Assembly: GCA_037190965.1 (NCBI GenBank)
Contig: JBBCKI010000019.1
Span: 32,001-96,000 of the forward strand
Reading direction: 5' to 3'
DNA: 64,000 bases
Origin: Chthoniobacteraceae bacterium
GTDB taxonomy: Bacteria > Verrucomicrobiota > Verrucomicrobiia > Chthoniobacterales > Chthoniobacteraceae
Under the pieces are notes generated by a model, which was not told the DNA's origin, did not search any database, and was given only the letters and a program-made list of their open reading frames with translations. Every line of letters starts with the position of its first letter. Position 1 is the first letter of the stretch. Positions 11,753 to 27,518 of this stretch are shown in pieces. The position numbers were made by a program, and so were the translations under genes.

Positions 11753-12406
11753 ATGGCGAATATTTTCCCGCGTTGGAGTAACCTCCTTCCGCTCAAGCTT
11801 TTGATCTGCGCCGCTGTTTTGGGTGCTGGCTTGACGGGGGGGATCTGGTACTACTTCACCCCCAAGTACACCCGCGTCGGCTACATGCCGGTGCAACCGG
11901 TGCCTTTCTCCCACAAGATCCACGTCGGCCAGTTGGGGCTCGATTGCCGGTATTGCCACAGCTTCGTTGAGGTGGCGGCGCACTCGAACATCCCCAACAC
12001 CCAGACCTGCATGAACTGCCACTCGCAGGTGCAGAAGGAAAACCCGAAGCTCAAGCCGGTTCATGACTCTTGGGCCACCGGGAAGCCGATCGACTGGGTG
12101 CAGATCCACAAAACGCCCGATTACGTCTACTTCAACCACTCCGTTCACGTGAATCGCGGGATCAGCTGCTACAGCTGCCACGGACCGGTCAACGAGATGG
12201 AGGTCGTCTATCACCGCGAACCGCTCAGCATGGCGTGGTGTCTGGACTGTCACCGCAATCCCGAAAACCACCTCAGACCACCCCAGGAGGTCTTCAACCT
12301 CAACTGGCAGCCACCTGCCGGAACGACCCAGAGGAATATTGGTCTGGAGTTGAAAGACAAGTGGAACGTGAACCCGCCTGAGAACTGCGCTGGCTGCCAT
12401 CGATGA
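11753..12406 (+). CDS. actA: alternative complex III pentaheme cytochrome c ActA
   Basis: five CxxCH (CRYCH, CMNCH, CYSCH, CLDCH, CAGCH), PVQPVPFSHKIH, N-terminal TM. Confidence 0.93.
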   Translation: MANIFPRWSNLLPLKLLICAAVLGAGLTGGIWYYFTPKYTRVGYMPVQPVPFSHKIHVGQLGLDCRYCHSFVEVAAHSNIPNTQTCMNCHSQVQKENPKLKPVHDSWATGKPIDWVQIHKTPDYVYFNHSVHVNRGISCYSCHGPVNEMEVVYHREPLSMAWCLDCHRNPENHLRPPQEVFNLNWQPPAGTTQRNIGLELKDKWNVNPPENCAGCHR

Positions 12407-15400
12407 AACATATTTTCCAACATCCTCCTGAAAAGTTGACGGGCCGGAAGTACTGGCGGAGCCTCGGCGAGTTCGCCGACACCCCGGAATTCAATGGCTG
12501 GTTGGAGCGCGAATTTCCCGCCGGCGCCGCCGAAATGAAGCTCGACGGGGTTTCCCGCCGTAACTTCCTCAAGCTGATGGGCGCTTCCACGGCGCTCGCC
12601 GGGTTCAGCCTCGCCGCCTGCCGTCACCCCAAGAACCTCGTTCCATTCACGAAAAGTTCGGAATGGACGATCCCCGGCAAGCCTCTCTTTTACGCCACCT
12701 CCATGCCGCGCCGCTCAGGCGCAATGCCGCTGGTGGTCACCACCCACGACGGACGCCCGACCAAGATCGAAGGCAACCCGCATCACCCTGCGGGCAAGGG
12801 AGCCACTGACGGTTTCGCCCAAGCATCGATCCTCGACCTCTATGATCCGGATCGCTCCCGCTTCTTCGAAGAGAAGGGCAAGCATTCCGACGCCAAGCAG
12901 TTCGAAGCCTACCTCGATAACCTGATCGCCGAAGCAGGCGACGGTTCCGGGATCGCCTTCCTGCTGGAGGAGAGCAACTCCCAGACGCGCGAGCGGCTCC
13001 GCAAGGAGATCGCCAAGCGCTTCCCGCAAGCCAAGTGGGCTGTTTATGAGCCGCTTGGCAGCGATCTGTCCGAAGCCGCCTCGGCTGCTTCGTTCGGCCC
13101 CGGCATCAAAGCCGTCCCTGTTTTTGAAAAGGCGGACATCGTACTCACGCTCGACTGCGACTTCCTCGCGGGCGAGATGACCTCACTGGCCGATGTGCGC
13201 GCGTTCGCCGATCGCCGCCGTGTCGAGAAGGCGGGCGACAAGATGAACCGCCTCTACACGGTAGAGAACCGGTACACCGTGACCGGTGGCGCCGCCGACC
13301 ATCGTCTGCGTCTCCCCGCGAGCCAGATCGGTCTGTTCGCTCTCGCCCTCGCGAAAGAGCTCGGCGTTAACGTTGACGGAATCGCCACGCCGGAAGGCAA
13401 GGTCGATTTCTCGCCGGAATGGGTGAAGGAAGCCGCCGCGGACCTCAAATCCGCCCACGGCCGCAGCCTCGTACTGGTCGGGCCGCGCCAGCCGGTCGCC
13501 GTGCAACAACTCGGCGCCGCGATCAACAACGCCCTCGGCAGCTTCGGCGAGACCCTCGTGGGTGCCCGCATCCCGGTCGCGCCCGCGTTGACGATTCTCG
13601 ATTTGGCCGAGGCCATCAAGCAGAAGACCGTCAAGACGCTCTTCATTCTCGGGGGGAACCCGGTATACAACGCGCCCGTCAATCTCGGTTGGGCGACGCT
13701 CCAGAAGTCGGTGCCCGAAGTCGTCCGTCTCAGCCTCTGGGTGGACGAAACCTCCCAGCATTCCCGCTGGCAGGTGCCCGGCGCTCATTATCTTGAGACC
13801 TGGAACGACGGCATTGCCGGTGAAGGTAGCTATACCCCGGTTCAGCCGATGATCCTGCCGCTCTATGACGGCTGGTCGGAACTTGATATCCTCGCTAAGT
13901 TTGCGGGGCTCAAAAAGCCATCCGGAGCGGAACTGGTTCAGGAAACCTTCCGTCAGCGGGTGAAGCCGAGCGACTTCACCGCCGCCTGGAGCAAGTTCCT
14001 CCACGACGGGTTTGCCGCCCAGCGCAAAGAGTCCATTGCTCTCAACTACACCGGGGCCTTGCCCAAAGACGGTTTCTCCGCTCCTGCCGGGCCCGGGAAT
14101 TTCGAAGTCGTTTTCCCTGCTGACTCCAAGATGGAAGACGGTCGTTACAACAATAACGGCTGGATGCTGGAGTTGCCCGATCCGATCACCAAGACCACGT
14201 GGGATAACACCGCGTGGATCAGCCCCAAGACTGCGAAGGAACTGGAGATTGGCTATATCCCGCACAAATCCGAGCACGAAGTGATCGAGCTGTCGGTGGG
14301 AGATCGCAAGGTGCAGGTGCCTGTGTTCATCGCGCCGGGCCACGCCGATAACTCCATCTCCCTCTCGCTGGGCTGGGGCCGCAAGGTCGTCGGCAAGCTG
14401 GGGCAGGGGACCGGGGTTGACGCTTACTCCCTGCGGACCATCGATTCGCCTTATTTCGCCCTCGGCGCGAAGATTACCAAGCTCAACAAAAAGGTGGTCA
14501 TCGCTCACACGCAGGAACACTTCAGCATGGAAGGCCGCGAACTGGTTCGCGAAGCCACGCTGGCGGAGTTCGACGCGAAGCCCGATTTCGTGAAGACCAT
14601 GGGTGGCGACAGCCATGTCCCACCGGGGCCTCCCAGCCTTTACACCCATCCCGAGCTGGATTCCCCCAACCAATGGGGGATGGCGATTGACCTGAACACC
14701 TGCATCGGCTGTGCAGCATGCACCGTGGCCTGCCAGGCGGAGAACAACACTCCCGTCGTCGGCAAGGAGCAGGTCATCAACGGCCGCTCGATGCACTGGA
14801 TGCGCAACGATCGCTATTTCGTCAGCGACAGCGAGTACCACGAAGATCTCGGCGAGTTCCCTTCCGATCCACAGATGGTCGCCCAGCCGATGCTCTGTCA
14901 GCACTGCGAAAACGCGCCGTGCGAAACGGTCTGCCCCGTTAACGCGACCATTCACAGCAATGACGGCCTCAACGTCATGGCCTACAACCGGTGCATCGGC
15001 ACCCGGTATTGCGCCAACAACTGTCCGTTCAAGGTTCGCCGCTTCAACTTCTTCGATTACAACCAGCGTCCGATCACGCCGGTGAAGGTTCCGCTCCTGG
15101 GTGAGGTCAACGGTCTCAAGCTCGGGCCTCTGGCTCCGAAGGGAATGGCCGACACGCTCAAGATGCAGAAGAACCCGAACGTCACCGTCCGTATGCGTGG
15201 CGTCATGGAGAAGTGCACCTTCTGCGTCCAGCGCGTTCAGGAAGCCCGCATCGCCCAGAAGGTGAAGGCCGGGGCATCCGATAACGTGACGATCCCGCCG
15301 GATGTTTTCACCTCGGCCTGCGCCCAGGTCTGCCCCACCGGAGCCATCGTGTTCGGTGACGTCAAGAATCCTGAAAGCCGGGTCTCCAAGCTCAAAGAGC

Positions 15401-15543
15401 AGGAGAAGAATTATCGACTGCTGGAATACCTCAACGTCAGAACGCGCGTGAGCTATCTGGCCCGTCTCCGCAATCCCAACCCGAAGATGCCCGACGCAAA
15501 GAAATCCGTTGCGCACGGCGCCGCTGAACCCGCTCACTCCTAA
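12403..15543 (+). CDS. actB: alternative complex III subunit ActB (molybdopterin-oxidoreductase-like + Fe-S)
   Basis: YWRSL.E start, Tat [17 protein letters not shown], four Cys clusters in the C-terminal ferredoxin part. Confidence 0.95.
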
Positions 15544-26429: not shown

Positions 26430-26701
26430 ACCGCCCTCTGAACATCACGCTTCCTGCCCTTCTGATTTCCATATCGATGAAGGGGAACGCCCTTGCCTGC
26501 GCGGTATGCACCGGCTCGGCCGATGCTCCTATCGCCCCGGCGATGAACGCGTCGATGGTGTTTCTTCTCGCTGCCATCGCGGTTGTCGGCAGCATGTTTT
26601 TCGGTTTTTTAATCTATCTTGCCCGGCGGGACGGCCTGCCTGCAAACGTTAATCAAGAACTCTCCGGGGAGATGGAATCCCCTATCTCTCAACAAAGCTG
26701 A
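26426..26701 (+). CDS. small membrane protein with CxxC (CAVC)
   Basis: signal-like N-terminus, ALA-CAVC, one TM; translationally coupled on both sides. Confidence 0.7.
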   Translation: MNRPLNITLPALLISISMKGNALACAVCTGSADAPIAPAMNASMVFLLAAIAVVGSMFFGFLIYLARRDGLPANVNQELSGEMESPISQQS

Positions 26702-26702
26702 T

Positions 26703-27518
26703 ATGTTGAATAAATTGTTAGGAATGCCCCTGAATGCTTCCGAGCACGGGTTTCAAGTCGACCAGATGCTCGAGTTTGTGCACTGGATCATGCTGGTGCT
26801 CTTCGTCGGGTGGTCGACATTCTTCATCTTTACTTTGATCCGCTTCCACAAGTCGCGGAACCCGAAGGCGGATTACCACGGCGTAAAATCCAAGGCTTCC
26901 ACTCACATCGAGTTCATGGTGGTGCTGGTGGAGTCGGTCTTTCTGCTCGGGTTCGGTATTCCCCTGTGGGGCAAGCGAGTTAATGGACCAAAGCCGGAAG
27001 GAGGCGACGTGGAACGTGTCCGCGTGGTCGCCGAGCAGTACAAGTGGAACTTTCATTATCCCGGCGCAGACGGGGTGATCGGCCGCCGGAAGACTGAACT
27101 CGTGAGTGCTTCGAACCCTGTAGGGCTCGACTACACGGATCCTGCCGCGAAGGACGATATTGTGACCGCCAACGAGATGCACCTCCCGGTCAACAAAGAT
27201 GTCATCCTGGAGATCAGCTCCAAGGACGTCATTCATAGCCTTTCGCTCCAGTTCATGCGCATCGGCCAGGACGCGACGCCCGGCCTGGTGAGCCCCATCT
27301 GGTTCAAGCCGGTCAGGACCGGCGAGTTCGAGATCATCTGCGGCCAGCTTTGCGGTTACGGTCACTACCTCATGCGCGGAAACATGGTCATTGATTCCGC
27401 CGAGGATTATCAGGCCTGGTTGAAGGAGAAGGCGGCAAATGCCGGCGCTCCTGCTGCACCGGCTGCCGGCGCCGCAACTCCTGCTCCTGCCGCCCCTCCC
27501 GCAGGGGCCGCGCACTAG
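26703..27518 (+). CDS. ctaC: cytochrome c oxidase subunit II (CuA, no fused cytochrome c)
   Basis: two TM, AEQYKWNFHY, SKDVIHS, CGQLCGYGHYLM CuA motif. Confidence 0.93.
   Translation: MLNKLLGMPLNASEHGFQVDQMLEFVHWIMLVLFVGWSTFFIFTLIRFHKSRNPKADYHGVKSKASTHIEFMVVLVESVFLLGFGIPLWGKRVNGPKPEGGDVERVRVVAEQYKWNFHYPGADGVIGRRKTELVSASNPVGLDYTDPAAKDDIVTANEMHLPVNKDVILEISSKDVIHSLSLQFMRIGQDATPGLVSPIWFKPVRTGEFEIICGQLCGYGHYLMRGNMVIDSAEDYQAWLKEKAANAGAPAAPAAGAATPAPAAPPAGAAH

Follow-up and report, generated by a model that had tools for sequence, protein, structure and literature searches.

What is a cytochrome oxidase subunit doing between two respiratory complexes once it has lost every residue that could hold a haem or a copper ion? 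The question arises from a gene cluster in a 64,000-nucleotide stretch of contig JBBCKI010000019.1 of a Chthoniobacteraceae bacterium (assembly GCA_037190965.1), the whole of which is here called the window. In this cluster the genes of alternative complex III (ACIII) are followed by a three-gene module, comprising a homologue of cbb3 subunit I without ligands (CcoN*), a CcoO homologue and a second monohaem cytochrome c, and then by the genes of an aa3-type (A-family) oxidase. The first-pass annotation read the arrangement as a candidate fixed supercomplex, whose dedicated haem relay, made up of CcoO and the second cytochrome, would stand in for the cytochrome c domain that subunit II of the aa3 oxidase lacks. 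That interpretation is partly supported. Sequence evidence firmly backs both the loss of function in the subunit and its repeated origin, and the anchor role of CcoN* is supported by structure prediction. The reading that we favour, with a rough probability of 0.55, is that CcoN* serves as a cofactor-free membrane anchor for a tethered c552-class cytochrome carrying electrons from ACIII to the CuA centre of an A-family oxidase.

A cbb3 subunit I without ligands

CcoN* aligns with CcoN of P. stutzeri (3mk7) at an expectation value (E) of 1e-39, and its six ligand columns hold no His at all (H60>Q83, H207>Q229, H257>Q279, H258>R280, H345>S367 and H347>Y369). The Tyr of the helix VII cross-link has become Ser (Y251>S273) and E323 has become Val (V345), so the description of the subunit as ligand-less was accurate. 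The same six columns are all His in the genome's own CcoN on another contig (C23). Against the ccoN family model TIGR00780 the protein scores 173 bits, for a cut-off of 583. The cbb3 fold of 12 helices is nevertheless kept, since the predicted model (predicted local distance difference test, pLDDT, 91) has 12 long helices and finds 3mk7_A as its best Foldseek match (E 5e-23, TM-score 0.84/0.91).

A homologue search returned 583 proteins at E 1e-20, many of them carrying the source name 'cbb3 subunit 1'. Residues were counted in the 119 listed besides the query; 117 of these keep two or fewer of the six His, and none of the 117 keeps two of the three CuB His. Sampling covered 301 genomes of the phylum, 71 of which, besides the window's own, carry the CcoN type of the ACIII cassette, and the neighbourhoods of all 71 were fetched. 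CcoN has all six His and the Tyr (live) in 41 of them and is dead in 30. Counted by locus, there are 40 dead and 65 live copies, excluding three at contig ends (L025, L029, L032), a dead one with a gap in a ligand column (L042), a frameshifted one with several broken genes, probably an assembly fault (L043), six loci that are not linked to ACIII (L033, L036, L037, L039-L041) and nine more distant CcoN loci (L142-L144, L149-L154).

The cross-link Tyr is present in none of the 40 dead loci. The reading frames of the 39 dead copies counted besides the window's are uninterrupted (461-522 aa), and deep dead clades persist at 27-80% identity. The ratio of nonsynonymous to synonymous substitution (dN/dS) is 0.115 for CcoN* and 0.100 for ActC in the closest locus pair, and 0.07-0.24 in nine measurable dead pairs versus 0.01-0.13 in nine live pairs, all of these values being rough, as dS often exceeds 1. 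A sequencing error or a pseudogene is ruled out by the unbroken frame, the His-poor homologues and the purifying dN/dS. Judged from its sequence, CcoN* is catalytically dead yet maintained under purifying selection, and it cannot reduce O2 by the known mechanism.

The proton path has changed along with the active site. Of the alternative K-channel positions of cbb3 oxidases, CcoN* has altered three (Tyr251>Ser, Ser240>Ala, Thr215>Ser) and kept Tyr317, Tyr223 and Asn289. Ser240 and Tyr317 are what we take to be the Ser and Tyr of the cbb3 proton channel. Ser240 is invariant in the 65 live loci, while Ala replaces it in 34 of the 40 dead loci and in 115 of the 117 dead homologues. The published channel consists of Tyr-II, a Ser and a Tyr, the Ser being listed without a residue number (PMC3084760).

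The same act-ccoN-ccoO-cytochrome cassette is common in the class Verrucomicrobiae, and the comparison shows that dead CcoN descends from a ligand-intact ACIII-linked cbb3 oxidase, a state that remains the more frequent of the two. On the CcoN tree the dead rows are split among three positions, and a single origin of the dead form was rejected (approximately unbiased test, p 0.0005; 54 rows, ligand-bearing columns removed, proteobacterial ligand-intact copies as outgroup). By this phylogenetic evidence the CcoN centre has been lost at least three times. A tree of ActC from 49 of the same operons requires at least seven changes of the dead state on starred branches, an excess that reflects either further losses masked by long-branch attraction or the transfer of dead alleles between operons. 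Live and dead forms coexist even inside one genus (g14). In another genus, g26, the four sampled genomes carry three to four pmoA apiece; their dead CcoN retains one His, and none of them has a ccoN that passes the family cut-off.

Two side observations concern the ligands. In L006, L075 and L077 the dead CcoN keeps both low-spin haem His and Arg57, the binuclear centre being gone, and may still bind haem b. The 65 live loci and the six loci not linked to ACIII appear to form a ligand-intact C-family subgroup with Gln or a hydrophobic residue in the Glu323 column and Gly in the His243 column; the subgroup also occurs without ACIII in Betaproteobacteria, adjoining sco.

Cytochrome partners and the oxidase that follows

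Both cytochrome motifs reported at first pass, CNYCH with an axial Met in CcoO and CASCH with a Met in the second cytochrome, are present in the window (Table 1). The third-gene protein has one CxxCH and hence is not a dihaem CcoP. Among solved structures its haem domain is nearest to a tethered c domain, that of three-domain Cu nitrite reductase (E 3e-38), with cytochrome c552 (E 1e-29) and CcoP (E 6e-24) next; the CcoP chains match more weakly, but they span both anchor and haem domain. Domains of the c552 class and tethered c domains act as donors to copper centres, as c552 does to the CuA of Thermus ba3. A cbb3 oxidase receives its electrons at CcoP, from which CcoO relays them to subunit I; since subunit I is dead here, CcoO faces a dead end and is probably a side branch or buffer, not an obligatory relay. 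The CxxCH motif is kept by both cytochromes in 40 of 40 dead loci, and the axial Met of the third-gene cytochrome in 39 of 40, the remaining one being cut by a contig end. The axial Met of CcoO is lost in 5 of 40 dead loci and in none of 64 complete live ones, which speaks against a two-cytochrome relay as a general design. An apparent loss of the Met in 13 live third-gene cytochromes proved to be an alignment artefact, both sequences inspected having it after a short insert.

A model of the complex of CcoN*, CcoO and the third-gene cytochrome scored 0.73, whereas the best of three controls, one of which had CcoN* replaced, scored 0.00; the mark that it passes is reached by 116 of 157 solved pairs and 2 of 215 mismatched pairs, although the pass may reflect likeness to solved cbb3 complexes. 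The runs agree in at least 64% of contacts, and partner pLDDT is at least 73. The confident contacts lie only between residues 37-83 of the cytochrome and residues 284-310 plus cytoplasmic loops of CcoN*; the haem domain has none, which we do not count as evidence either way. The prediction places the anchor helix of the cytochrome against helix 288-310 of CcoN* and its cytoplasmic loops, in agreement with the first-pass proposal that CcoN* anchors this protein. In dead copies, conservation is higher at the positions of this predicted interface than elsewhere (0.58 vs 0.50, p 0.025, from rows that are not independent).

Additional haem domains or inserts were seen in related loci. In two dead loci (L122:11059-11868; L132:11064-11906, minus strand) ActG carries a fused c552-like haem domain, and the third-gene cytochrome is doubled to a dihaem form in L005 and L035. 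In eight loci (L003, L004, L006, L007, L009, L026, L075 and L077) a long Pro/Ala-rich insert separates the GxDL motif from the Met loop within the haem domain of CcoO.

The association of His-less CcoN with act genes is complete, act genes being found upstream in 39 of 39 dead loci. The proposed association with aa3 holds at the genome level, where an A-family subunit I occurs in all 30 dead-copy genomes (33 of 41 live ones), and fails for many individual loci: of the 37 dead loci that could be evaluated, 15 are followed by an A-family oxidase gene on the same strand, compared with 3 of 58 live loci. The window's CoxB has the CuA motif and no CxxCH, confirming that its subunit II is not fused to a cytochrome c (c-less). 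In dead-copy genomes subunit II is only c-fused in 20, only c-less in 9 and of both kinds in 1; in live-copy genomes it is fused in 31, c-less in 2 and missing in 8. The ten dead-copy genomes with a c-less subunit II are all the sampled members of the window's own CcoN* clade. Three loci pair a c-less aa3 oxidase with a ligand-intact CcoN. Fisher tests of the dead state against A-family presence (p 0.017) and against a c-less subunit II (p 0.009) were set aside because kin are not independent; corrected for kinship, on six independent pairs, p is 1 for both. With kinship taken into account, the dead state does not follow a c-less subunit II.

The picture is sharper for single operons. Where the ACIII operon runs into an oxidase, the module goes with a c-less subunit II in all 15 loci with a visible coxB, as well as in the window. 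A complementary ActC-seeded search of the same 301 genomes led to 20 further loci, comprising 12 ACIII operons without the module that are followed by a c-fused caa3 oxidase, four lone ActC-like genes, two truncated act clusters followed by other genes, one contig-split partner of L119, and the locus of genome G039. Subunit II is thus c-fused in 12 of 12 operons without the module, and also beside the second ACIII of the window's genome (C66). At the operon level the module and c-fusion of subunit II are almost perfectly mutually exclusive, and this favours the relay version put forward at first pass. Live or dead, the module occurs in 71 of 72 genomes with a cassette-type ActC.

The remaining genome, G039, has a cassette-type ACIII with a c-less coxB beside it, and the module was not found in the genome. 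At its locus (L225, G039:C1:234258-254257) ACIII is directly followed by coxC-coxD-coxB, and ccoN, ccoO, the cytochrome and coxA are missing; a stand-alone c552-like gene lies elsewhere in the genome. L035, L076 and L078 combine a ligand-intact ACIII-linked cbb3 with a c-less aa3 in one cluster, and are possible intermediates before loss of the cbb3 centre. L226 and L227 have actB-C-D-E without actF, directly followed by genes that presumably encode Na+-NQR. The genomes of L145-L148 have a second, lone ActC-like gene of about 700-720 aa (L230, L235, L243, L244) with no other act genes.

A proposed anchor for a tethered shuttle, and the alternatives

Two wirings of ACIII to an oxidase have been published, one through a sixth haem on ActA (PMC8552683) and one through a haem c on subunit II (PMC5928083). 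With five haems on ActA and none on CoxB, neither the Flavobacterium nor the Rhodothermus solution is available to the window's cluster. A small stand-alone class I cytochrome c was not found in the window's genome (97% complete), and neither was a bc1 complex or a bd oxidase. Since the anchor helix is predicted to dock on CcoN*, the wiring haems are missing, no small cytochrome c was found, CcoO is dead-ended and the Met of the third-gene cytochrome is kept, we favour CcoN* as anchor and this cytochrome as a c552-class shuttle. The ancestral route would have run from ActA through ActE, the third-gene cytochrome and CcoO to CcoN. As soon as the third-gene cytochrome was able to supply an A-family oxidase, the cbb3 catalytic centre would have become dispensable, and the anchor would not. 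The cytochrome, presumably attached to ACIII, would take electrons from it and pass them to CuA, with CcoO acting as buffer or side branch on the side facing the dead centre. In the window's genome the acceptor is likely to be the adjacent c-less aa3 oxidase, to which the carrier need not be exclusive.

Several results weigh against the anchor reading. Selection on dead copies, as measured by dN/dS, is weaker than on live ones, and the association of the dead state with A-family oxidases or a c-less subunit II vanishes after correction for kinship. The 20 dead-copy genomes with only a c-fused subunit II have a ready alternative, given that the c-fused subunit II of R. marinus has been proposed to take electrons directly from ActE (PMC5928083). 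G039 joins ACIII to a c-less coxB with no module, and ActE alone could serve CuA.

Extended to its full consequences, the anchor reading would describe a third type of ACIII supercomplex, a picture that we offer tentatively and that falls short of even odds. The cbb3 centre of an ancestral ACIII-cbb3 complex would have been inactivated no fewer than three times, and perhaps on seven or more occasions. The same Ser>Ala change would have closed its proton path, and the remaining shell would have been put to use in docking a swinging c552 that feeds an aa3 oxidase without a K-channel. CcoN* would then be the first pseudoenzyme among haem-copper oxidases, with living intermediates in the loci that combine a live cbb3 with a c-less aa3 and in the forms that hold haem b only.

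The alternative that survives best, though an unlikely one, gives the module a structural or assembly role alongside this ACIII lineage, its haems forming a general outlet or buffer (for canonical cbb3, caa3 or N2O reductase) with no special tie to aa3. The near-universal presence of the module beside cassette-type ActC agrees with it, as does the fact that the tie to act genes is absolute and that to aa3 is not. The window's genome holds further oxidases that such an outlet might supply, a ligand-intact cbb3 (C23) and a caa3 (C66); a methanotroph has a nos cluster inserted among these genes (10.1101/2024.01.15.574570), and the extra c552-like domains of L122, L132, L005 and L035 fit the same idea. 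Yet every dead copy found shares its genome with an A-family oxidase (genomes lacking one number 0 of 30 for dead copies and 8 of 41 for live ones), ACIII of other lineages works without such a module, and G039 has an ACIII but no module.

The fixed supercomplex of ACIII, the module and aa3 that was proposed at first pass, with CcoO and the second cytochrome as dedicated relay, seems to us doubtful in that strict form. It draws on the contiguity of the genes in the window and in 15 of 37 dead loci, the c-less subunit II throughout the window's clade, the c-fusion in module-less operons, the retention of both Met ligands in the window, and a five-helix subunit III like that of the F. johnsoniae supercomplex (PMC8361435). 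Against this, a separate promoter-like site precedes coxA, and 22 of the 37 dead loci have no adjacent aa3, including L075 and L198, members of the clade whose c-less aa3 lies elsewhere. Most dead-copy genomes (20 of 30) have only caa3, the CcoO Met is lost in some dead loci, and in G039 a c-less subunit II sits beside ACIII without the module.

It is improbable that CcoN* has acquired a new chemistry, such as one haem held by different ligands, a site for a quinone or a lipid, an ion pathway or a redox sensor. Certain substitutions are suggestive, among them Arg in the His258 column of 105 of 119 homologues, Tyr plus His in the low-spin haem columns of 40 of 117, and the retention of the two low-spin haem His by 3 of the 40 dead loci and by 7 of the 117 homologues; the change of Ser240 to Ala is also too regular for drift. 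The replacements nonetheless vary between lineages, the window itself has Gln and Tyr in the haem b columns and has lost Arg57, none of the 117 homologues keeps two of the three CuB His, and Ser>Ala is more simply explained as the sealing of a proton path. The least probable explanation of all is that CcoN* is slowly decaying and persists solely because it is coupled to its operon. The dN/dS of dead copies is higher and their branches are longer than those of live copies, the loss has recurred and G039 has deleted the whole module, but the low dN/dS, the absence of any broken frame among the counted dead loci and the depth of the dead clades tell against it.

The cluster in its genome and among known systems

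The cluster is a single run of genes on the plus strand (actA-G, ccoN*, ccoO, the cytochrome c gene, coxA, coxC, coxD, two small membrane open reading frames (ORFs), coxB and assembly genes), with intergenic distances of -4 to +27 bases throughout from actA to the third-gene cytochrome. The ACIII set is complete, with a pentahaem ActA, a fused ActB, an NrfD-type ActC, ActD, a monohaem ActE, ActF and ActG, and ActE is the likely electron exit. The closest related locus shows 81% identity. The features are listed in Table 1.

Table 1. Positions of the ACIII, module and oxidase features in the window (TM, transmembrane; TAT, twin-arginine translocation).
Feature	Position	Strand	Evidence or remark
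actA, pentahaem cytochrome c of ACIII, without the sixth (mobile) haem domain	11753..12406	+	5 CxxCH; Cytochrome_C7 and QrcA matches
actB, molybdopterin-like and Fe-S subunit, variant TAT signal	12403..15543	+	QrcC/QrcB and TIGR04519 matches
actC, NrfD-type quinol-binding membrane subunit	15543..17018	+	PF03916
actD	17018..17563	+	PF11821, E 1e-57
actE, monohaem cytochrome c (CAVCH, Met184)	17591..18277	+	Met184 kept in all aligned loci
actF, membrane subunit	18274..19488	+	position; 33% identity to second ACIII copy on contig C66; alignment
actG, one TM helix (11-29) and Pro/Ala tail	19490..19990	+	profile match to solved ActG 8k9e_G, E 9.3e-5
ccoN*, full-length cbb3 subunit I homologue	20002..21519	+	lacks six His ligands, cross-link Tyr, Arg57, Glu122, Ser240
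ccoO homologue, one TM helix, monohaem (CNYCH at 65, Met151)	21516..22187	+	FixO PF02433; nearest solved are CcoO chains, E 1e-26
Tethered monohaem cytochrome c (CASCH at 119, Met173)	22184..22906	+	CcoP-like anchor helix 43-61, Ala/Gly linker, c552-class haem domain
Sigma-70-like promoter site, 11/12 match	22910..22937	+	consensus match only; between cytochrome c stop and coxA
coxA, A1-type subunit I	23109..24920	+	alignment to P. denitrificans 1ar1_A, E 9e-125
coxC, five-helix subunit III, long loop insert	24932..25807	+	
coxD, caa3-type subunit IV	25827..26180	+	TIGR02229 above cut-off
67-aa hydrophobic ORF	26226..26429	+	no family match
91-aa one-TM ORF	26426..26701	+	conserved in related loci; no family match
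coxB, subunit II, CuA ligands, no fused cytochrome c	26703..27518	+	no CxxCH
Assembly genes ctaA, ctaB, sco, DUF420, resB, resC	27620..34349	+	haem a, CuA and system II cytochrome c maturation; beyond 27518

The adjacent oxidase has the residues of an A1-type enzyme, its CoxA carrying six His, the HPEVY motif (Glu278, Tyr280) and the D-channel Asp124, with CuA ligands on CoxB and haem a synthesis genes at hand. Its K-channel is altered (Lys354>Ile, Ser291>Ala, Thr351>Ser), the A1-type channel being formed by Lys354, Thr351, Ser291 and Tyr280 (PMC3084760). The K-channel Lys is absent from all 14 CoxA of the coxA-C-D-B gene order, including those of methanotroph genomes, and present in the three of the coxB-coxA order; a literature search for an aa3 without a K-channel in F. 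johnsoniae returned no papers. The two small hydrophobic ORFs (26226-26701) are candidate extra oxidase subunits. Sigma-70-like sites numbered 2 versus 5.3 expected in shuffled sequence, and the terminator scan gave 20 versus 20.1 expected. Near the cluster, a NirDL/AsnC-like sirohaem decarboxylase gene (35130-36245, minus strand) points to the sirohaem route of haem synthesis.

Elsewhere in the genome, the canonical ligand-intact cbb3 (G000:C23:21490-24673, minus strand) consists of a CcoN-CcoO fusion (808 aa) and a monohaem CcoP, and dead CcoN* is therefore not needed for low-O2 respiration. In the CoxA of the second ACIII-caa3 (G000:C66:32212-33837, minus strand) the CuB His of helix VI is replaced by Pro (CCT), one base from a His codon, which may be an assembly error or a real inactivation.

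The ligand-less CcoN family is real and conserved, and apparently undescribed. The literature searched, with subscription papers and supplements outside its scope, contained no description of a ligand-less CcoN or of a subunit I without any cofactor ligands, and the available text of two papers on oxidase evolution (PMC8239418, PMC6431628) holds nothing on such a family. One standard oxidase classification discarded His-less sequences by rule, so a His-less subunit I could have been missed (PMC3084760). The ACIII-adjacent genes of verrucomicrobial methanotrophs have been described as a cbb3 oxidase (PMC8498564, PMC6688271), to which the high O2 affinity of these organisms has been linked (PMC6688271), and cbb3 is likewise counted as working in 10.1101/2024.01.15.574570 and PMC13608581; an ACIII followed by caa3 has also been listed (PMC13274419). 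For annotation the consequence is that ccoN, read as a sign of high O2 affinity, is dead and the sole ccoN in all four sampled pmoA-bearing g26 genomes, which are not equated here with published strains. Together, the live and dead forms provide a natural series for studying how ACIII passes electrons to oxidases and how a respiratory enzyme turns into a scaffold, and a first structure of an ACIII-cbb3 assembly could be sought among the 41 ligand-intact loci.

Compared with known systems, the module shares with the cbb3 oxidase CcoNOP of P. stutzeri (3mk7) the subunit I fold, the CcoO haem with its Met, the N-O-P gene order and, by prediction, the docking of a third c-type subunit on subunit I through its anchor helix. 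It differs in that CcoN* lacks the six His, Tyr251, Glu323, Arg57, Glu122 and Ser240, and in that the third subunit is monohaem and nearer to c552 than to CcoP. The gene cassette is that published as verrucomicrobial ACIII with a C-type oxidase (PMC8498564, PMC6688271). Its description as a working cbb3 is right for 41 of the 71 sampled genomes, because CcoN is ligand-intact there, whereas the enzyme is dead in the other 30, all four of the g26 genomes included.

The ACIII-aa3 of F. johnsoniae likewise has ACIII beside aa3, a c-less subunit II and a five-helix subunit III, and a membrane-anchored mobile haem c domain has been proposed as its shuttle (PMC8552683, PMC8361435). That mobile haem belongs to ActA as its sixth. 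The window's ActA carries five haems, and its cluster has the candidate shuttle in a distinct protein, for which a dead oxidase subunit is the predicted anchor. The ACIII-caa3 of R. marinus resembles the window's system in its pentahaem ActA, its ActE and its ActG, and the genome's second ACIII (C66) and 12 other loci are of that type, but its subunit II bears a haem c, whereas the window's has none and a CcoN*OP module is inserted. A parallel for a rebuilt active site is offered by gNOR, eNOR, sNOR and NOD, which are also oxygen-reductase scaffolds with changed active sites and several origins, gNOR being called the first family with one active-site His replaced (PMC11214002). These enzymes keep a haem-metal centre, whereas CcoN* has no ligand set left.

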